Shown here in pieces: positions 8,706-44,704 of a stretch of DNA of 63,590 nucleotides (its first letter is position 1; each line of letters starts with the position of its first letter). Below the pieces are notes generated by a model, which was not told where the DNA came from, searched no databases, and worked only from the letters and a program-made list of their open reading frames with translations. The stretch is from sequence record OR880647.1; one strand, given 5' to 3'. Position numbers and translations under genes: made by a program. The stretch is from Escherichia phage ECP2304.

Positions 8706-9162
8706 CTTCTTCGGCTTTATAAAAGCTAAACCGCGTCTGTTTATCGAGTATTTGATGATCGGCGCGGTAGTGTTTTTATGCGGGGTAGCTGCCTACCTGT
8801 GGTCACAGAACGAGCTTAACAAATCAAATTTAAGTTTGGCTGAAGAACGTTTAACCGTTGTGGAGAAAGACAATGCAAAGCTGGGCGAGGCTGTTGTATT
8901 TCTTGCTGCACAAAGGGAGAAGGACACGGACTCTTTCAAGAAACTAACTTCTGCAATTCAAGATGAACAACATAACCACAAGTTGCTTCAGGACAAGTTG
9001 CAGACACTGGAGAAAAGCAATGCTGACGTCAAAGCTTATCTTAACGAGCGTATTCCTGATGATTTGCGCAGGTTGCTCGACGCAAACTCAACCTCCTCCA
9101 GCTCCACAGATAGTGAAGGTAAGACTACCCGCACATCTACTGGTGGAATGTCGGGAAGTTGA
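8686..9162 (+). CDS. i-spanin (Rz-like)
   Basis: N-terminal TM helix then coiled-coil; o-spanin embedded in +1 frame. Confidence 0.65.
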   Translation: MKMILNNFFGFIKAKPRLFIEYLMIGAVVFLCGVAAYLWSQNELNKSNLSLAEERLTVVEKDNAKLGEAVVFLAAQREKDTDSFKKLTSAIQDEQHNHKLLQDKLQTLEKSNADVKAYLNERIPDDLRRLLDANSTSSSSTDSEGKTTRTSTGGMSGS

Positions 9163-9325
9163 GAAAATTCCTTTGGTTTACACAAGAGATATTATCCGAC
9201 GTTTACAGGATACAGAAACTGCTCTGACTGAATGTAAGCTAAGGGTTAAGGAAATCATACGCTATGAAGCTGAAAATGTTTCGCTTGATTTTGTAGGATC
9301 AAGCAATTATATTCAGCCTAAATAG
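9020..9325 (+). CDS. o-spanin (Rz1-like outer-membrane lipoprotein)
   Basis: ATG 9020 in alternative frame of i-spanin; signal-like MLTSKLILTSVFLMICAGC with lipobox-like Cys followed by Pro-rich STQTQPPPAPQ. Confidence 0.6.
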   Translation: MLTSKLILTSVFLMICAGCSTQTQPPPAPQIVKVRLPAHLLVECREVEKIPLVYTRDIIRRLQDTETALTECKLRVKEIIRYEAENVSLDFVGSSNYIQPK

Positions 9326-9345
9326 CAATAAGAAGGGGAGCTTCC

Positions 9346-9903
9346 ATGAACGGGGCAAGTCAAGAGCAATATGATCGTGACTGGACGAACTATATCCAGT
9401 ATGCAAATAGCTTGTCCGCTGACGAGATGGCAATACGTGACAAAGTTGTTGCTGAGTATATGTTCGACTACAATTGGACTAACGCTTGCATGAGATGCGG
9501 GTTCAATGCTATGTTTGCACAGGAGCTTGGCCAACGCTTTGCCACGGACTGTTACGTTCGATGGAAGCTCAAGGAGATTGAAAGATCCCGTGTTCAACGT
9601 ACTTCTGAGCAAGCTAACATTGAAGCAGACCTAGAGCGTCAGCATATCATTGAAGCATTAAAACGTGAAGCTCATTATACAGGACCGGGATCTTCTCAAG
9701 CTGCTAGAGTAGCCGCATTGGGCAAGCTTGCACAAATTTATGATTTGGATGCGCCCAAGAAGGCTAAAATTGATGTTACTAACAGAGGCGGCGTAATGAT
9801 AGTCCCTGCTGTAGCAAATATTGACGAATGGGAAAAAAATGCATCCGAGTCTCAACAACGACTAGTTAAAGAGACTGAAGATGGAGCTAAACCGACAACC
9901 TGA
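9346..9903 (+). CDS. putative terminase small subunit
   Basis: 185-aa ORF immediately upstream of and overlapping terminase large subunit. Confidence 0.45.
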   Translation: MNGASQEQYDRDWTNYIQYANSLSADEMAIRDKVVAEYMFDYNWTNACMRCGFNAMFAQELGQRFATDCYVRWKLKEIERSRVQRTSEQANIEADLERQHIIEALKREAHYTGPGSSQAARVAALGKLAQIYDLDAPKKAKIDVTNRGGVMIVPAVANIDEWEKNASESQQRLVKETEDGAKPTT

Positions 9904-11440
9904 TAACATGCCGCGAGTAGTCTGGAAGCCACATCCAGGTTCACAGACGCTCGCTTTATCCTGTCCTGCTGATATCATTTTATACCACGGTACTCGCGGT
10001 CCTGGAAAGACGGACTGCCAGCTTATGCGTTTCCGTAAGAATGTTGGCGTAGGGTACGGTAAATTCTGGAAGGGTATTATATTCGATCGTGAATATAAAA
10101 ACCTTGATGACCTTGTAACCAAATCACAGCGTTGGTTCCCTGAATTTAAAGATGGTGCTAAATTCCTTAGCTCGAAGTCTGATTATAAATGGGTTTGGCC
10201 CACTGGGGAAGAATTGCTGTTCCGTGTTGCTTGCAAAGAAAAGGATTATTGGTCTTATCATGGTCACGAATACCCGTTTATCGGATGGAACGAATTAACA
10301 AAGTATCCGGACGGGCGTTTGTTTGAAGCAATGATGTCCTGTAACCGTTCATCATTCCTACCCGAAGATAATCCAATTATCAATCCGGACGGTACTGTCA
10401 CATATCTACCAGACATTCCTCTGGAAGTATTTGCTACCAGTAACCCGTTTGGTGCGGGGCATAACTGGGTTAAGAAACGCTTCATTGATGCTGCACCGAT
10501 GGGTAAGATACTCAGGAAAACTACGCGAGTGTTTAACCCGCGGACGCAGAAAGAGGAAGATGTGGTTACGACGCAATGTCATATCTTCGGATCTTACCGC
10601 GAGAACAAAAACCTGAGCCCGAAATATATTGCAGAGCTTATGTCCATCACAGACCCGAACAAACGAGCTGCATGGTTAGGCGGTAGCTGGGATATCACCT
10701 CCGGCGGTATGTTCGATGATCTGTGGCGTAGCACTGTTCATAAAATACGCCCATTCCCAATCCCATCAAGCTGGAAGATTACACGCTCTTTCGACTGGGG
10801 TTCTTCAAAACCATTCTCCGTTGGCTGGTGGGCTATTAGTGACGGTTCGGATGTTGTACGTGAGGATGGTACTACATTCTCTACTGTTCGCGGTGACTTA
10901 TTCCGTATTAACGAGTGGTACGGCACTAACGGTAAAACAAACGAAGGCCTACATTTGCTGGACTCAGAGATTGCAAGCGGTATACTGGAGCGGGAATTGG
11001 CCTGGGCTATACACGACCGTGTAGTTCCTGGACCTGCGGATAACTCTATTTGGGATCTGGAGAACAATAACTCTACCGCCGCAACAATGGCGAAGAAAAT
11101 CCGTCTTAACGGCAAGCTGTATAACGGCATCCATTGGAAGAGAAGTGATAAATCCGCTGGGTCGCGTAAACGCGGATGGCAGAAAATGCGTGAGTTTCTT
11201 AAAGCTGCATTGCGGGAAGATGCAAACGGTAAACCTTTGCCGGGGCCACGTGAAAATCCAGCAATGTATGTTTTCGATAACTGCAATTATTTCTTTGAAC
11301 TGGTTCCAAGTCTTCCGCGTGATGAAGTAGATCAGGACGACGTTGATACGGAATGTGAAGACCATATGGGCGATGAAGTACGTTATATGGTTCTGGATCA
11401 AGCTGTTTATACTGGTGTCGGTAGAACTATCGGTATTTAA
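9881..11440 (+). CDS. terminase large subunit
   Basis: Walker A-like GTRGPGKTD; about 519 aa; upstream of portal; alternative ATG at 9908. Confidence 0.8.
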   Translation: MELNRQPDNMPRVVWKPHPGSQTLALSCPADIILYHGTRGPGKTDCQLMRFRKNVGVGYGKFWKGIIFDREYKNLDDLVTKSQRWFPEFKDGAKFLSSKSDYKWVWPTGEELLFRVACKEKDYWSYHGHEYPFIGWNELTKYPDGRLFEAMMSCNRSSFLPEDNPIINPDGTVTYLPDIPLEVFATSNPFGAGHNWVKKRFIDAAPMGKILRKTTRVFNPRTQKEEDVVTTQCHIFGSYRENKNLSPKYIAELMSITDPNKRAAWLGGSWDITSGGMFDDLWRSTVHKIRPFPIPSSWKITRSFDWGSSKPFSVGWWAISDGSDVVREDGTTFSTVRGDLFRINEWYGTNGKTNEGLHLLDSEIASGILERELAWAIHDRVVPGPADNSIWDLENNNSTAATMAKKIRLNGKLYNGIHWKRSDKSAGSRKRGWQKMREFLKAALREDANGKPLPGPRENPAMYVFDNCNYFFELVPSLPRDEVDQDDVDTECEDHMGDEVRYMVLDQAVYTGVGRTIGI

Positions 11441-37592: not shown

Positions 37593-38512
37593 CAGAACAA
37601 CTCCATTACACGATCACGGAATGTGCCGTCATGGGTAGCGTTAATGTTTGCAGCAATTACACCATACGCCCATAAGTTGAAGGCGGCACGTGATTCATAG
37701 ATTGTTGATAAACGTTCGTAAGTGAAACCGTTTTGCTCAAGGTATTTAAGGACAGCGTCTTGTTCAATTTCAGTTAATGTTGAAACATGCTTACCAAAAT
37801 GATGGCGGTCCGGTGACTTATCTGATACGCGCATTGGTCCCCACGGAGGGGTAACCACACTTCCAAACGCTGCCGCTTGAATCCAGGAGGATGAGTCACA
37901 GCTATACCACGGATAACGCTCCATAATGGTTGTGGACGTAATACCAAACGCATGAAGTTTAATTTTAGCACGTCCGCTACCGTCGCAAATATATTTGTCC
38001 CACATGCGGTCCAGCCAAGTTTTAAGCGTGTCCGTTGAACGTCCTACCATGCCCCCAATGGTGATATATTCGTAGTTCTTCATGTAGTATTCAAGATAGC
38101 GGAAGTCCTCCCCAAAGTGAAAGCAAGGTAACGGTTTAGCACCGCGTGCTTCCATTTCAAGCTGGTTACGGTAGGTTTGCAACGGGTCACCAATACCGTC
38201 GAGCACCGACGCCATTACAGCACCATCTTCTACGCGAAGGATGTCTTTGTTACGCTTGATGTATTCGCAGTATTCAACAATATCAATGTGAGCACCCAAA
38301 GAGTGCGCGGAGAATGCACCTGAGTCGAGAAACACTTTAGCCCCATCCGCACGCATTTGATCAACATACTTCTGACGTCCAACGTAGTGGTATGATTCCA
38401 AAATATTTGGAAGGCTATTAACAATGTCTTTTTCCCGATCGTTTAACTTTTCATATCGTTGTTGACCAGCTTTATAGCCGTTGGTATATACCGCAGCGAC
38501 AAACAGATGCAT
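37592..38512 (-). CDS. dpdA: DpdA-like DNA-guanine transglycosylase
   Basis: TGT-superfamily-like FLDSGAFS motif; 306 aa; inside queuosine-precursor gene cluster. Confidence 0.6.
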   Translation of the reverse strand: MHLFVAAVYTNGYKAGQQRYEKLNDREKDIVNSLPNILESYHYVGRQKYVDQMRADGAKVFLDSGAFSAHSLGAHIDIVEYCEYIKRNKDILRVEDGAVMASVLDGIGDPLQTYRNQLEMEARGAKPLPCFHFGEDFRYLEYYMKNYEYITIGGMVGRSTDTLKTWLDRMWDKYICDGSGRAKIKLHAFGITSTTIMERYPWYSCDSSSWIQAAAFGSVVTPPWGPMRVSDKSPDRHHFGKHVSTLTEIEQDAVLKYLEQNGFTYERLSTIYESRAAFNLWAYGVIAANINATHDGTFRDRVMELF

Positions 38513-39069
38513 TATTCCACCTCAAATTTATTACGCTTAGATCTGTTTTCTTCAATAGATAAGTATTGTAGGTTACTAAGGACGTGAAGTCCACTGACTC
38601 TTTTACCGCAAAGGGGTATAATATGATCAACCTCCATCCCATCCGGGCAGTTAGCGTAGAACAATTCAATTTGTTCTTTTTCAGACCACGCAGGGATTCT
38701 TAAAGACCTTTTCTTATGCACTTCAAGGGAATGTAACCTTGATCTAGCTTTACCGTAATCTGTCTTAGCCCAGCGTTTCAGCCTTTCTTTATTTTGTTCT
38801 TTACCTTTCTCAGTAGAATCATAAGCAGCTTTTGAACGTTGAAGGGCTTCTTTTCCTTTCTGTGACTTATGGTATCTCTTAACAGCATTCCTTGCAGCTT
38901 CTGTTTTATTGTAAATACGCATTCTTTTCTTTCGTGCTTCTCTGTCACAAGTAATACAATAGCCATCTACAGTCTTTCTTTCAGAAACATGACCTTTCGC
39001 ACAAGGCTTACCAGTAAAATAATATTTCAAACCTCTTTCTTTTGCTTCAGCTCTTGTGATAATTTCCAT
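38512..39069 (-). CDS. HNH homing endonuclease
   Basis: EVDHIIP...N...N HNH motif; N-terminal zinc module; very basic. Confidence 0.7.
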   Translation of the reverse strand: MEIITRAEAKERGLKYYFTGKPCAKGHVSERKTVDGYCITCDREARKKRMRIYNKTEAARNAVKRYHKSQKGKEALQRSKAAYDSTEKGKEQNKERLKRWAKTDYGKARSRLHSLEVHKKRSLRIPAWSEKEQIELFYANCPDGMEVDHIIPLCGKRVSGLHVLSNLQYLSIEENRSKRNKFEVE

Positions 39070-39139
39070 TGTCTTATACCAACTAAAAAGCCCATACCAG
39101 TATTATGACCGATATGGGCTTGATCTGTAAAGCTATCTA

Positions 39140-39736
39140 TTATTTACAAGCTTCTAGGAACTCACGGCGCCAAATATAACCATTCTCCGTCTCAATACCA
39201 AATTCACCAGTGGCTGTCGCACCGCGAAATGCTTTAGTGATAGTAGAGCTTCCGCATACCTGCTTAACACCGCGCGACTCCATGCACATATGCTTGGCGT
39301 CAATATAAACACATACAGCTTTCGGGTTTAAATGCTCTTGAATAGCGTCTGCAATCTGGTTAGTAAGACGTTCCTGAACTTGCAGTCGACGACTAAAAGC
39401 ATCCACAACGCGAGACAGCTTACTAAGCCCAACGATCTTCCCATTGGGGACATAACCCACAACAGCATGACCGATGATAGGAGCCATATGGTGTTCACAA
39501 TGGCTGTATACAGGAATATCACGGACAATGACCATTTCATTGGTGTTTTCCGCCCCGTCTTCAAAGGTCTTAAACAGACCAGCAATATCTACATCGTAAC
39601 CGCCGAACCATGTAGCATAGGCTTTGGCTACACGTGATGGAGTTTCTTGTAGACCTTGACGTAGAGTAGGTGAAGCATGGTCTTCAATATTAAACAACAG
39701 GGACATCACAGCGTTTTCAACAGCTTTAATATTCAT
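39140..39736 (-). CDS. folE: GTP cyclohydrolase I
   Basis: CEHHM and GLSKL motifs; 198 aa. Confidence 0.8.
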   Translation of the reverse strand: MNIKAVENAVMSLLFNIEDHASPTLRQGLQETPSRVAKAYATWFGGYDVDIAGLFKTFEDGAENTNEMVIVRDIPVYSHCEHHMAPIIGHAVVGYVPNGKIVGLSKLSRVVDAFSRRLQVQERLTNQIADAIQEHLNPKAVCVYIDAKHMCMESRGVKQVCGSSTITKAFRGATATGEFGIETENGYIWRREFLEACK

Positions 39737-39771
39737 GGTTTGCAGTTTCCTTGTTTGTTAATGTGGTCATA

Positions 39772-40308
39772 TTACAGGCTATAGTTTACGTGACATTTCG
39801 AAGTTTCTTCGATGGTGCATTCTACAAGTTGAACACCATGTTCGTCAAGCAGTTGGGGGCCAATCACGTTAACCATATATGCAGCTAAGTTTTCCGCAGT
39901 TGGGTTGAATGGTAAGGACACTAACGAATTAAAGAAGTGGTTTTCATCTTCTTTATCTATAGCATCGTCATCAAAATTGTTTCGATCGAAGATAATTAAT
40001 GTCTTCAAACCATCGATAAGATTATCCTTTTCCCAATGCAGGAATTTATGATCCCAGTTATCTTCCAGCCATTGGCAGAGCGTAGTTTTAACCACACTAA
40101 AATCAATAACGCGCCCAACATCGTCCAGTTTACCTTCAACGGAGAAACCTTTCGCGCCCGGGATGTAGTTTTCGCTTTCTACGCGCTTCGGCGCAACCTT
40201 AAAATGAAACTTATAGTTGTGACCGTGAAGATGACGACACTTGCTTTCATGTCCTACAACACGATGTCCAGCACAAATTTCATGTGAACGAATTACTGTA
40301 TAGCTCAT
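39772..40308 (-). CDS. queD: 6-carboxy-5,6,7,8-tetrahydropterin synthase
   Basis: CxGH...HGHNY motif. Confidence 0.75.
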   Translation of the reverse strand: MSYTVIRSHEICAGHRVVGHESKCRHLHGHNYKFHFKVAPKRVESENYIPGAKGFSVEGKLDDVGRVIDFSVVKTTLCQWLEDNWDHKFLHWEKDNLIDGLKTLIIFDRNNFDDDAIDKEDENHFFNSLVSLPFNPTAENLAAYMVNVIGPQLLDEHGVQLVECTIEETSKCHVNYSL

Positions 40309-40309
40309 T

Positions 40310-40579
40310 TTAATCCTCTTCTACTCTATTCATAAATTCCAAATAACGACGCATAGTTTCTTCTTTTGTGGAAGAATTAAAATGCGACCAACCGTTATCT
40401 AACGAATAACCCCAGTAATACTCACCATACTTCTTCCGCATAGCTGGGATGGGGCATTTCCTTCTTTCAAGCTTAGGATTCTGCGATCTTATATACGCTT
40501 GTTTTTCTTTAAGGCTTAATGCTTCAAACCAATCAGCTTGCTCGTGTGGCTTTAAATGACTTGGAGGTACAGGAATCAT
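40310..40579 (-). CDS. hypothetical protein (89 aa)
   Basis: Clean ORF inside modification cluster. Confidence 0.5.
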   Translation of the reverse strand: MIPVPPSHLKPHEQADWFEALSLKEKQAYIRSQNPKLERRKCPIPAMRKKYGEYYWGYSLDNGWSHFNSSTKEETMRRYLEFMNRVEED

Positions 40580-41154
40580 TTTAACACCTCTTTAGATTGT
40601 TCGATTTCTAACGCACGCTGTGCAGACGCAATAATGTCTTTCAAATCTTCTACCAGACTTTTATGACCGCGTTCGCCAGGCTGCAACGCCTTTTTAATCA
40701 AATGTTGTAAAGCTGGGTTAGTCGTTTTCCAAGCTTCCAAGACATCATACACGTCCACGATGCATTTTACAACATTGCCGTTTTGATCTTTACCATAAAT
40801 AACTTTCTGGTATTTGTTTAGATTGTCGTCTTTATTCATAACAGATCGTATATCCCAATCCTTTCCGTATACGCCCAGTCCATCAATAGCGAAACTTTCA
40901 GAAGTCACTTTAAATCCATTTTCACCGGCTTGTCTAACGTAATCTTCTGCGACAATATAACGCCAAGATATAACCGAATCCCTTTCTAACGGTATTACGT
41001 TATCACAGGATTTTTTATACCAGTCCCATCCTTGCCTATGATTTTTCTTAAGAGAACCGTCAGCTAATTGAACTTCAAACTGTTCGTTTTGAAGAAAAAT
41101 GGGCATTCCTTTCCCATCATGCTTGTGCCAAATTTTATTAAGATTATCTTTCAT
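40576..41154 (-). CDS. hypothetical protein (192 aa)
   Basis: Clean ORF inside modification cluster. Confidence 0.5.
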   Translation of the reverse strand: MKDNLNKIWHKHDGKGMPIFLQNEQFEVQLADGSLKKNHRQGWDWYKKSCDNVIPLERDSVISWRYIVAEDYVRQAGENGFKVTSESFAIDGLGVYGKDWDIRSVMNKDDNLNKYQKVIYGKDQNGNVVKCIVDVYDVLEAWKTTNPALQHLIKKALQPGERGHKSLVEDLKDIIASAQRALEIEQSKEVLK

Positions 41155-41156
41155 TT

Positions 41157-41636
41157 TTACGCTCTCGCTGTACGTGAATGAACTTCATAAACAACCCAAA
41201 GGATGGCAGATGCTGTGAACTTACTTAAGCTCATTGCTACCATTGATCCCGGATTAACAATACCTATAATACTTAAGAACACAATGGAGTCAATCGGTAC
41301 AGCTACCAAAGAGCTAATAAATACACGTTGATGAAACGGCTTCTTAGTAATCGTGTATACCGCATAGTCCGCAAACTCGCTAAGAGCAAAGGATGCAACG
41401 GATGCAACTACAACAGCAGGATCCCCGAATACCCAGCTAAGGACACAACCAATAATCATTGCAGGGATAACACCTTTGCCAGCATTACGCTGTGCGTAGT
41501 CGCGCAACACAAAGATAATACCTACAAAGAAAGCCATCATGGGGACTACGCCAAGAGGCGTGTTAAGCATTGGAAGGTAGGAAAAGCCCAGGTTCACGAA
41601 TGTAATTGCAGCCAGATAAGCAACGATAAATTTCAT
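41157..41636 (-). CDS. putative queuosine-precursor transporter (YhhQ-like)
   Basis: ATG 41634-41636 after GGAG; multi-TM protein resembling E. coli YhhQ segments by eye. Confidence 0.45.
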   Translation of the reverse strand: MKFIVAYLAAITFVNLGFSYLPMLNTPLGVVPMMAFFVGIIFVLRDYAQRNAGKGVIPAMIIGCVLSWVFGDPAVVVASVASFALSEFADYAVYTITKKPFHQRVFISSLVAVPIDSIVFLSIIGIVNPGSMVAMSLSKFTASAILWVVYEVHSRTARA

Positions 41637-41756
41637 ACTTTTGTTCTCCAGTTTTAACAGCGTTATTCGCTGGTTGTTGGGTTTAAAAGCTTTAGTAGTA
41701 TAGTTGGGTTCCCGCACCCTAAACAATGCGCTAGCGGTGCGGTTTTCGCGGTAAGA

Positions 41757-42479
41757 TCAAACGTGTTTGCTGTAAGCGTTATCCATAAATTCGCTGTACC
41801 CTTTAGCACGTAGTTTGCACGCAGGACATTCACCGCAACCATATCCCCAGTCATGCAGAGTGCGACGGACGCCGTTATAGCAAGTATGGGACTGTTCAAT
41901 TACTGTGGTTAAGAAACCAACCTTATCCGCTAGCTCAAACGTTTCTGCTTTATTTAAACGCATAAGCGGGGTAACGAAATGAATATCTGTTTCATATCCA
42001 ACGTTTAACGTAGCTTCAAGCAAGTCTACAAACTGCTGGCGGCAATCTGGATAACCGCTATAGTCTGTTTCACAAACGCCCGTAACCACATATCGGGCGC
42101 CAACTTTCTGTGCGTAGGCGTGCGCGGTAGTCAGGAAAAGAGCATTACGGTTTGGCACAAAGCTTGCCGGAAGGTTGTTGTGCTGTTCGTGATGTTCGTT
42201 AACATCACCTTCGTCCCCGATTAAAGCGCTATTCCCAATCTGTTTCAAAGCAGGTAATTCAAAGACAACAAATGGGACATCGTGCTCTTTACAAATTTGA
42301 TTAGCACAAGCCAGCTCAATGTTATGACGTTGACCGTATGCAAAACCAATAGCGTAAACCTTATCATAGTTATTAAGTGCAAGACCTAAACAGGTCACGC
42401 TGTCCTGGCCGCCAGACAGGACGACAACGGCGGAGTTATGATTTTTTACAGGGAACACCAGTTTATCTAATTTATTCAT
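41757..42479 (-). CDS. queC: 7-cyano-7-deazaguanine synthase
   Basis: PP-loop SGGQDS; C-terminal zinc Cys cluster CGECPAC; ATG at 42477-42479. Confidence 0.8.
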   Translation of the reverse strand: MNKLDKLVFPVKNHNSAVVVLSGGQDSVTCLGLALNNYDKVYAIGFAYGQRHNIELACANQICKEHDVPFVVFELPALKQIGNSALIGDEGDVNEHHEQHNNLPASFVPNRNALFLTTAHAYAQKVGARYVVTGVCETDYSGYPDCRQQFVDLLEATLNVGYETDIHFVTPLMRLNKAETFELADKVGFLTTVIEQSHTCYNGVRRTLHDWGYGCGECPACKLRAKGYSEFMDNAYSKHV

Positions 42480-42480
42480 C

Positions 42481-42669
42481 TTAGAACCCTTTAAGGCTAA
42501 TATTAAGATTAACGACCACTTGTTCAACTACATCATCAGATGTCATCTGACGCTTATGAATTTCAAGCTCCGAATGTATGTTCTTTGATGCAGCACGACA
42601 GATAGCGTCATTCAGCTCGTCTTGTAAACGTTGCATCTTCTGCATAAGAATCACAGTTTCTTCATTCAT
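42481..42669 (-). CDS. hypothetical protein, tandem paralog A (62 aa)
   Basis: Similar to adjacent 42662..42874 product. Confidence 0.5.
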   Translation of the reverse strand: MNEETVILMQKMQRLQDELNDAICRAASKNIHSELEIHKRQMTSDDVVEQVVVNLNISLKGF

Positions 42670-42874
42670 CTTCTACACCTTTAATATCACAAGGATTAAT
42701 TGTTACATTTGACATCACAATTGGATGATTGCGTGCCCCGATTGTGCTAACGTGATTAATATCTAATTCTACATGCACGCCCTGCATGGTAGCGTGAGCA
42801 ATTGCAGAATTAAGTTTTTCTACCAGCTCAGTGATCATTTCCTGATGCTGTTTCGCTTCTTCCAAAGTGATCAT
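42662..42874 (-). CDS. hypothetical protein, tandem paralog B (70 aa)
   Basis: GAAGGTGA RBS; similar to 42481..42669 product. Confidence 0.5.
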   Translation of the reverse strand: MITLEEAKQHQEMITELVEKLNSAIAHATMQGVHVELDINHVSTIGARNHPIVMSNVTINPCDIKGVEDE

Positions 42875-43127
42875 TTCTTTTCACCTTCACTAATGTTTGT
42901 TTATAATCCATACCTTCAAGGTCAACTTCTGCCATTTCACAAAAGTTATTATCCTCCCAGTATGGTGTCCATTTAGTTTGACCATCCCTCAATGTTGGCT
43001 CATACTCGAATCCATAAATTGTACCGTCTTGATCCGTAGCTAGCCACCATACCCATTCAGGGACATCAAGCTTATTGCCAAAATATTCAACTTCTTTAGT
43101 ATGCACAACCTGACTTAACACACGCAT
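42828..43127 (-). CDS. hypothetical protein, third member of paralog family
   Basis: Shares motifs with 4187..4438 and 5013..5309. Confidence 0.55.
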   Translation of the reverse strand: MRVLSQVVHTKEVEYFGNKLDVPEWVWWLATDQDGTIYGFEYEPTLRDGQTKWTPYWEDNNFCEMAEVDLEGMDYKQTLVKVKRNDHFGRSETASGNDH

Positions 43128-43834
43128 TATTCCACCCCGATATATTTGTGAACCTGAAGCTGCAATGTGTACCCGTGTTTCATACAGCTTTGGACAACCG
43201 CTTGAATGTTACTGTGGTTAAGATCTTCATCCTGCTCGTCCATTGGCTGTAAATATATCTTACCCTTGAACCCCTTCGGAGGTCTAGCGATAAATGGCGT
43301 AGCCTGATGATCTAATGCTTGAAGAGGTAAACCATCTTCCACGTTTACACAGCACGCTTTAAGTACATATTTAAATGCATTAGCGCGGTACAGCACAGAA
43401 GGATGAATCTTTGAGGTCTTAGGACTACATACAATCACAGGCAACTGGGAAAAGTTCTTAGGTAAAGGCATAGACCCATTAGTTTCAATTTGCACCAAAT
43501 AGCCGCGCGATAACAGTTGTTGAATAAACGGGTTAATTTGCTGACGGAACGGTTCACCCCCAGTAATAACCACAAGTGAGGTGCTATTGCCTGATTCCAG
43601 CTTACGGCTTTCAATTAAACGCATGATATCAACAATGTGATATTTGGTGCGACCGTTGGTATAGTCAGTATCACAGCCCGGACATTGCAGGTTACACCCA
43701 GCAAGACGCACAAATACAGCAGGCTGGCCGCAGAATGGCCCTTCACCTTGAATGGTAGAGAATACCGAATGCACGTCTAAATACATATCGTTTTCTTTAG
43801 AACGAGACTCGGGAGCTTGTTGATTAATATTCAT
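43127..43834 (-). CDS. queE: 7-carboxy-7-deazaguanine synthase (radical SAM)
   Basis: TIQGEG, CNLQCPGCDT cluster, ITGGEP, ETNG; AGAGGA RBS. Confidence 0.8.
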   Translation of the reverse strand: MNINQQAPESRSKENDMYLDVHSVFSTIQGEGPFCGQPAVFVRLAGCNLQCPGCDTDYTNGRTKYHIVDIMRLIESRKLESGNSTSLVVITGGEPFRQQINPFIQQLLSRGYLVQIETNGSMPLPKNFSQLPVIVCSPKTSKIHPSVLYRANAFKYVLKACCVNVEDGLPLQALDHQATPFIARPPKGFKGKIYLQPMDEQDEDLNHSNIQAVVQSCMKHGYTLQLQVHKYIGVE

Positions 43835-43903
43835 CTTAAATCCTCTAGTGAAAAAGAAAGCGCCTCATTGGGCGCCTTCATTATAACGTGATATGTTTTA
43901 ATA

Positions 43904-44704
43904 TTACAAGCCGTTCAGGGCTTCCGGTACTGGTACAGGTACGCAACCAGTCACACCATTAAATTTCTTCCAGCGTGCATACTGGGTTTTAACAGTATCT
44001 TCGTTCAGCCCGTGGCGACCAGCCAGGTTCAGAACATAAGAGATCGGAGCAGGCTGACCCAGCGTAGCGCTAATCTGGTCCATCAGAGCCCAAGCACGAC
44101 CGCAGGAAGTTTCCGGTTGCGGACGGCGAACACCGTTCTGTTCCGGCATACGATTAGCTTCTTTTTCTTTCTCACGGAGCTCTTTAGCGCGTGCTTTTTC
44201 CGCTTCTTTTTCTGCCTGTTTTGCAGCACGGATCTTGTCTTTGAAGCCTTTAATAGTAGCTTCCAGTTCGTCGACCATGCTCTGAGCAGCAGTCACTGCA
44301 CCGGACAGATCTTCACCTTTGGATTTTTTAACAACTGCTTTCAGATCTTTCAGAGCATTCTTTAAATGCTTCAGCTGTTCAGAACCCTTAGATTCTGCTT
44401 CCGTAATCTGTTCAACAGTGCTTTCATCGGTAATACCGGATAAAGCAAACTTCACGGTTTCAACTGCCTGGGAAAGAGCGGTAAATTTGTTTTCCGCTTC
44501 AATGCGGATTTCAGCTTGTTTCTTTTCAGCGGCAGCTTTTTTCTCTGCTTCTTTTTTCTCTTTTGCTACGCGTGCAGCTTCAGCAGCAGCGGCTTTCTTA
44601 GCTTCTGCGTCATTCACAGTAGCTTCTTTCTTTGCAGGTTTAGCAGATTTTGCAGCGGCAGCGGCGGCTGCGGCAGCAGCTTTTTTGTCTTCAATGTTGC
44701 TCAT
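43904..44704 (-). CDS. hypothetical Ala/Lys-rich coiled-coil protein
   Basis: ATG 44702-44704 after GGAG; poly-Ala run and KKAAAE repeats; C-terminal 70-aa globular region. Confidence 0.55.
   Translation of the reverse strand: MSNIEDKKAAAAAAAAAAKSAKPAKKEATVNDAEAKKAAAAEAARVAKEKKEAEKKAAAEKKQAEIRIEAENKFTALSQAVETVKFALSGITDESTVEQITEAESKGSEQLKHLKNALKDLKAVVKKSKGEDLSGAVTAAQSMVDELEATIKGFKDKIRAAKQAEKEAEKARAKELREKEKEANRMPEQNGVRRPQPETSCGRAWALMDQISATLGQPAPISYVLNLAGRHGLNEDTVKTQYARWKKFNGVTGCVPVPVPEALNGL

Follow-up and report, generated by a model that had tools for sequence, protein, structure and literature searches.

The gene at positions 41157–41636 of Escherichia phage ECP2304 encodes a protein of a distinct short (approximately 155–165 aa) and mostly viral VUT/COG1738 subfamily, phrog_4899. 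We regard this protein as putatively importing or recapturing the free base preQ0, or a 7-deazaguanine precursor close to it, on its own and with high affinity but low capacity, and consider this role probable. The window used here is the whole stretch of 63,590 nucleotides of sequence record OR880647.1. The finding is correct but already known, and a combination of de novo synthesis with salvage has likewise been put forward in the literature.

The orthologous protein of phage CAjan (AJT60526.1) was deposited as a 'putative preQ0 transporter'. In the CAjan cluster, Kot et al. (2020) could assign six genes, among them yhhQ, which they drew as an alternative source of preQ0 (PMC7544227), and Olsen et al. 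(2023) mention CAjan yhhQ downstream of queC (PMC10484667). In E. coli, YhhQ is required for the salvage and uptake of 10 nM preQ0 or preQ1 (Zallot et al., 2017; PMC5372724), and the bacterium itself joins de novo synthesis with YhhQ salvage, for reasons that the same paper explains (PMC5372724). The original prediction described a phage that both makes and imports the precursor as an unusual metabolic hedge. We do not retain this description because CAjan yhhQ has been published and deleted (PMC7544227), E. coli has the same combination (PMC5372724), and tblastn shows that 34 phage records have an orthologue that is 95% identical or more. We found no published transport measurement for a phage YhhQ-type protein of the short subfamily in the literature.

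The transporter gene, its neighbours and its leader

Region 39000–44000 of the window is of the Seuratvirus type. Megablast matched this region to 54 phage records, and the best matches were Escherichia phages KS_A3, KS_S4, SA80RD, Seurat, Greed and the Bas phages at 90–93% nucleotide identity. The ECP2304 window is from a Seuratvirus (Queuovirinae), as is phage CAjan, which has 2'-deoxy-preQ0 (dPreQ0) in its DNA (PMC7544227). The features of the locus are listed in Table 1.

The predicted ORF exists and lies on the minus strand, where it runs from an ATG through 159 codons to a stop codon. A longer ORF with a TTG start (41726, 189 aa) is given by a mechanical ORF list. This start was rejected because homologues and the CAjan annotation begin at the methionine of the ATG (MKF), a proper Shine-Dalgarno (SD) sequence precedes the ATG, and the extra 90 nt are conserved non-coding spacer. 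Comparison with four Seuratvirus orthologues gave synonymous to non-synonymous codon changes of 35:4, 23:3, 40:4 and 31:6. With 23–40 synonymous and 3–6 non-synonymous codon differences, these data indicate an expressed gene under purifying selection.

The position of the gene between queC and ORFs of no assigned function was also as predicted. In the direction of transcription, queC is the immediate upstream neighbour, and a 192-aa ORF begins 2 nt past the stop codon of the transporter gene. Neither this ORF nor the 89-aa ORF that follows, both inside the modification cluster, has a Pfam or NCBIfam match. CAjan YhhQ has 97.5% amino acid identity to the ECP2304 protein; both are 159 aa long and both are encoded directly downstream of queC. 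The two phages have the same conserved 120-nt spacer, whereas the downstream 192-aa ORF is much more diverged, with only 56% amino acid identity to its CAjan counterpart as opposed to 75–98% for the flanking genes. Seurat, Greed, Skure and the Bas Seuratviruses carry the same gene as CAjan yhhQ.

Table 1. Features of the ECP2304 modification cluster, with positions in the window
Feature	Position	Strand	Remarks
dpdA (DNA guanine transglycosylase)	37592..38512	-	phrog_887 E=4.3e-94; 96% identity to CAjan protein
folE (GTP cyclohydrolase I)	39140..39736	-	81% identity to CAjan FolE
queD (6-carboxytetrahydropterin synthase)	39772..40308	-	75% identity to CAjan QueD
89-aa ORF	40310..40579	-	no Pfam, NCBIfam or PHROG match
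192-aa ORF	40576..41154	-	phrog_23361 E=9e-90 (function-unknown family); no Pfam match
Transporter gene (short VUT/YhhQ-like, phrog_4899; CAjan yhhQ orthologue)	41157..41636	-	ATG at 41636, stop codon ends at 41157; 159 aa, six predicted TM helices
Shine-Dalgarno sequence GGAG	41649-41646	-	9 nt ahead of the ATG
Leader/spacer between queC and transporter gene, 120 nt	41637..41756	-	strong conservation; hairpin and SD
Invariant block CUUUUAAACCCA	41689-41678	-	predicted pairing with SD and pre-AUG region 41650-41638 (RNAalifold)
Leader hairpin	41743-41736 / 41718-41711	-	
queC (7-cyano-7-deazaguanine synthase)	41757..42479	-	98% identity to CAjan QueC; megablast-hit annotations
queE (7-carboxy-7-deazaguanine synthase, radical SAM)	43127..43834	-	98% identity to CAjan QueE

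The leader that separates queC from the transporter gene differs at 0–3 of its 120 nt from four relatives (97.5–100% identity), and it is at least 96% identical in 33 phage records. The coding DNA on either side is 90–94% identical, with third codon positions at just 72–85%. Judged by these alignments, the leader is far more conserved than a neutral rate allows, and the spacer is a functional non-coding element. The more diverged relatives STP-SP5 and yong3 have kept the hairpin, a block CUAAA-CUUUUAAACCCAA and the SD region, and their loops vary. Pairing of CUUUUAAACCCA with the SD region, as predicted by RNAalifold, has one compensatory pair only. Control of translation of the transporter by the spacer is a possibility.

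A consensus scan of the spacer turned up neither a sigma-70 promoter nor an intrinsic terminator. TATACT, the hexamer there that comes closest to a -10 element, is not kept in STP-SP5 or yong3. A known riboswitch was likewise rejected. With permissive filters, the preQ1 riboswitches RF00522, RF01054 and RF02680 had no match at E<=10 in 41500–41900, nothing in the window reaches any Rfam gathering score, and the fold energy of the leader is ordinary (MFE z-score -0.95). In bacteria, preQ1 riboswitches control yhhQ. It is very doubtful that the leader is a phage counterpart of these, that is, a new regulatory RNA that hides the SD and opens with the 7-deazaguanine pool. If it were, the importer would be made only when the phage's own supply of preQ0 is short. 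In distant phages (loci L012, L015, L020 and L021), the VUT start is directly preceded by a simple GC-rich hairpin, often with a T-run after it as in a terminator. This suggests that expression of VUT is generally set apart from that of the upstream gene.

Family membership and predicted fold

Pfam Vut_1 (PF02592) was the only Pfam family matched by the phage protein (25.8 bits, E=1.5e-5, profile positions 57–140 of 152), and the score is 1.4 bits short of the gathering score of 27.2. The original prediction was to fall if no significant YhhQ/VUT profile match was obtained, and by that measure this score is borderline. Close relatives score 27.7–34 bits, which is above the gathering score. At E<=0.001, Vut_1 was the sole family matched by each of the aligned relatives (23 of 23), the best at 4.7e-8. 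The cut-off of NCBIfam TIGR00697 (queuosine precursor transporter, equivalog) was missed by a partial match of 21.6 vs 50.95 bits (E=1.5e-4). The viral family phrog_4899, for which no function is known, was matched over its full length (E=5.5e-48, residues 1–158 on positions 8–173 of 175), and distant phage homologues likewise match it.

Pairwise similarity to E. coli K-12 YhhQ (221 aa) was not significant (BLASTP E=1). We also used hhalign with A1, a diverse alignment of 23 members. Comparison of A1 with an enterobacterial YhhQ alignment, which is shallow (relatives at least 86% identical), gave a probability of 4.4% and E=0.009. Comparison of A1 with a cellular group of ~190-aa proteins gave a probability of 99.6% and E=5e-24, and this group includes proteins named 'queuosine precursor transporter' by JGI. 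The link of the phage protein to YhhQ is indirect and runs through this cellular group. Thus, the resemblance to YhhQ that was originally predicted stands at the level of profile and fold, but not as direct similarity to the E. coli protein.

In a collection of 5.8 billion proteins we found 118 relatives, most of which have 155–165 aa and are encoded on contigs of ~55–62 kb; the tail of this set consists of cellular proteins of 187–201 aa. The A1 profile found 1268 proteins at E<=0.001 among 1.84 billion cluster representatives. Because this number is so small, we place the short proteins in a separate, fairly small branch and not with typical YhhQ. The invariant residues of A1 are N15, R45, D46, Q49, R50, S79, E87, D90, R104, S108, S109, P114, D116, F120 and K139. 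In the hhalign register, which is that of the 4% alignment, E. coli YhhQ has the same residue at the positions of D46, R50, S79, D90, D116 and F120. The Vut_1 matches, together with the topology, fold and gene context described below, support assignment of the phage protein to the YhhQ/VUT (PF02592, COG1738) superfamily as a distant member.

The prediction of a multi-helix membrane protein was confirmed. Hydropathy shows approximately six hydrophobic segments and the helices of an AF2 model (pLDDT 86.9, pTM 0.78) agree with these. The modelled helices span residues 2–20, 33–70, 73–97, 101–124 and 129–158, with a beta-hairpin at 23–32; the long helix 33–70 covers two hydrophobic segments. Nine K/R residues (2, 45, 50, 54, 98, 99, 104, 155 and 158) are all in predicted cytoplasmic loops or termini. 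There are no K/R in the predicted periplasmic loops, and K139 is the sole K/R outside the N-terminus, 45–54, 98–104 and the C-terminus. Topology prediction had been put forward as a check on the transporter assignment. Taken together, the AF2 model, hydropathy and K/R distribution give six transmembrane (TM) helices with a cytoplasmic C-terminus and fit an N-in/C-in topology. The C-in orientation of YhhQ has been determined experimentally (PMC5372724), and the prediction for the phage protein matches this.

The top two PDB fold matches of the phage model were BtuM and RibU, and the model of E. coli YhhQ had the same top two. The two models have an identical order of elements, including the beta-hairpin between TM1 and TM2, in an indirect comparison that was based on shared PDB matches and element order and on a YhhQ model of moderate confidence (pLDDT 68.5). 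On these models, the phage protein has the fold of an ECF-transporter S-component, the substrate-capture type. The three best matches in BFVD had TM-scores of 0.65–0.72; two are nameless and the third bears the name 'putative vitamin uptake transporter'. As modelled, the protein is a trimmed YhhQ architecture of the vitamin-uptake substrate-capture type, which is how the VUT family is classed in TCDB 2.A.88 (PMC5372724). We found no solved structure of any VUT/YhhQ protein.

As a comparison, E. coli YhhQ (QPTR) shares with the phage protein six TM helices with C-in, the PDB fold matches and linkage to 7-deazaguanine genes, and its Pfam family is the one that the phage protein matches at E=1.5e-5. 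At 159 aa the phage protein is ~60 residues shorter than the 221-aa YhhQ; missing from it are the extension at the N-terminus, a periplasmic insertion that YhhQ has between TM3 and TM4 (approximately residues 90–105 of YhhQ) and part of the long C-terminal helix. The solitary S-components BtuM (8OVV) and BioY (4DVE), with cobalamin and biotin as substrates, have merely 6–8% identity to the phage protein. QueT/QrtT, which are ECF S-components for queuosine precursors, have the same proposed substrate class and general fold class. However, they belong to Pfam PF12822 and need an ECF module (PMC11130926), and the phage protein has no match to PF12822.

Linkage of short VUT genes to dpdA in other viruses

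With tblastn, the protein was detected in 74 phage records, among them every Seuratvirus-like coliphage, Vibrio phages that also belong to the Queuovirinae, and phages of Rhizobium, Aminobacter, Sulfitobacter and Roseobacter. Rhizobium phage RHEph04 and Vibrio phage 1.207.B carry the gene within their replication module, and queE and queC are a few kb away.

We searched 80 IMG/VR loci with the window proteins and several DpdA sequences. Results from this search placed dpdA on the same strand as VUT in 67 of the 80 loci. There were 18 loci that resembled the window in having dpdA together with at least two preQ0-synthesis genes, and three with synthesis genes where dpdA was not detected in the locus DNA examined. 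In 48 of the 67 same-strand loci, dpdA was adjacent to VUT (within ~1.1 kb). No FolE, QueD, QueE or QueC was detected in the locus DNA examined in 44 of these 48, although most of the 44 are fragments with a median of ~4 kb per side, and the absence of synthesis genes is proven in just two phage genomes. Matches to phrog_887 (E=1e-43 to 1e-61) confirm that the neighbours of VUT are homologues of DpdA.

The two genomes are those of Vibrio phages PS25B.1 (complete, 44,450 bp) and 1.173.O (48,063 bp), where dpdA and VUT abut or overlap. From end to end of both, tblastn at E<=0.1 found no preQ0-synthesis gene. The dpdA–VUT pair is at 35639–36872 in PS25B.1 (L094) and 9054–10318 in 1.173.O (L006), and dpdA is annotated merely as a hypothetical protein in both records.

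An ORF of ~80 aa sits between VUT and dpdA in 27 of the 48 adjacent loci (for example, L031:8843–9100, L082:974–1210 and L066:3478–3717). Residues C, D, Y, E, QE and H do not vary in an alignment of these ORFs. The ORF matches phrog_37496, a family of unknown function, and the best PDB match of its profile was the archaeosine synthase QueF-Like (5JYX) at E=1.8e-4; the catalytic Cys is among the aligned residues. The nitrile of preQ0 is the group on which QueF and QueF-L enzymes work, and those encoded by phages yield dPreQ1 or dG+ (PMC6884629). VUT together with enzymes that act downstream of preQ0, and with no synthesis genes, is the signature expected if VUT supplies preQ0, and this arrangement of genes supports such a role. 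We found no published description of VUT-QueF-L-DpdA cassettes, with incomplete coverage of reviews in the literature searched.

Four loci have the order VUT-QueC-DpdA (L053:9956–11701, and also L067, L070 and L075), with a short QueC of 182 aa (PF06508, E=1e-41). No FolE, QueD or QueE was detected in the locus DNA examined for these four. This order could reflect salvage of CDG rather than preQ0, or another role of QueC. Short VUT proteins also occur as fusions with a nucleoside 2-deoxyribosyltransferase, in both orders (P0353 and P0323, the latter at L091:111–971), which hints that base uptake is linked to base exchange in deoxynucleosides. No dpdA was detected near the deoxyribosyltransferase fusions on their contigs of ~1.6 kb. 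In P0242 and P0245 (L093:3941–4960) the partner is an HD-type (YfbR-like) phosphohydrolase, and this fusion mirrors neighbouring genes of Vibrio phage 1.207.B. The 192-aa neighbour of the ECP2304 gene is unrelated to the HD-type C-terminal domains of P0242 and P0245, and we rejected it as a Rosetta-stone partner of VUT. A homologue of this neighbour is upstream, not downstream, of VUT in L013, L014 and L016.

Proposed role and alternative explanations

Gene context ties short VUT genes to dpdA and other 7-deazaguanine genes, and to the extent that gene order can be a guide, it supports import of preQ0. We infer that preQ0 is the substrate, that the direction is inward and that no ECF module is needed. 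In this proposal, the compact six-helix, S-component-like protein of the inner membrane would capture preQ0 at the periplasmic face and release it into the cytoplasm. This would raise the pool for DpdA, which would exchange preQ0 for guanine in phage DNA. In ECP2304, the transporter would supplement or recapture the preQ0 made de novo by FolE, QueD, QueE and QueC. Because the phage makes its own preQ0, the transporter would be an accessory and dispensable supplement, as in CAjan. Where VUT occurs with DpdA alone or with DpdA and the QueF-L-like protein, it would be the sole phage-encoded route to the base, the host pool apart.

Genetic data from CAjan bear on this proposal. There, dpdA is essential for modification (PMC7544227). 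Deletion of folE or queC caused ~12-fold less preQ0 to be inserted, and this preQ0 came from the host pool (PMC7544227). Because these mutants still insert host preQ0, DpdA can use preQ0 that is not made by the phage. The DNA of a yhhQ deletion, tested in rich medium, was still restriction-resistant and its modification was wild-type (36.0% vs 34.9% of G positions called modified; PMC7544227), so no phenotype ties the gene to modification. We also counted against the importer reading that E. coli already encodes a YhhQ, so that it is not obvious what the phage would gain from another.

Substrates within COG1738 differ, since the E. coli member takes preQ0/preQ1 and that of Chlamydia takes queuine (PMC11130926), and a substrate therefore cannot be transferred by homology alone. 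The protein could be a VUT-type transporter that takes up preQ1, CDG, queuine or another purine or nucleobase, or that exports excess preQ0 or released guanine. We consider this unlikely, but it is the alternative to which we give most weight. In keeping with another substrate, specificity in COG1738 varies (PMC11130926) and no residue is conserved family-wide (PMC5372724). The four VUT-QueC-DpdA loci, having no QueD or QueE, would fit import of CDG, and the 2-deoxyribosyltransferase and HD phosphohydrolase fusions point to a broader nucleobase or nucleoside metabolism. By contrast, the commonest contexts, DpdA alone and the QueF-L-like protein with DpdA, need preQ0 itself, and CAjan DNA bears dPreQ0 (PMC7544227). 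Efflux is at odds with the fold, since proteins of the S-component type import the substrates that they capture, and the matches included no exporter with such a fold.

It is much less probable that the protein has kept a VUT-like fold for something other than transport, such as an anchor or scaffold for modification enzymes, superinfection exclusion or a part in lysis. Such a role would agree with unaffected modification in the CAjan yhhQ deletion (PMC7544227), with a length ~60 residues below that of E. coli YhhQ and with the missed thresholds of the curated families. However, the complete six-helix S-component fold is kept, and the intrahelical residues N15, D46, E87, D90, D116 and K139 are invariant across relatives of 40–80% identity. 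D46, R50, S79, D90, D116 and F120 are, moreover, identical in E. coli YhhQ in the hhalign register. From the alignments, these invariant polar and charged intrahelical residues would suit a ligand site better than an anchor. A role in lysis is also countered by the location of the gene, which is part of the module for modification and replication and not of that for lysis, and by holins appearing in BFVD just as non-significant matches (E>1). That the protein serves a modular ECF transporter as its S-component, and so depends on an EcfT/EcfA energising module of the host, seems hardly credible. The best structural matches do include RibU, FolT and ThiT, which are modular S-components, but the best of all, BtuM, and also BioY act as solitary S-components. 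E. coli K-12 is without ECF core components and yhhQ never clusters with them (PMC5372724), and no ABC-type gene is annotated in ~12.5 kb of CAjan around the gene.

A stand-alone importer of preQ0 or a close precursor is thus the reading we prefer. As a small, confidently modelled protein, it would be a convenient target for a first structure of a YhhQ/QPTR-family transporter. The VUT-DpdA and VUT-QueF-L-like-DpdA arrangements suggest that many uncultivated viruses may hypermodify their DNA with two or three genes by scavenging preQ0. If this is true, 7-deazaguanine modification of DNA in these viruses would hinge on the availability of the precursor in the environment.
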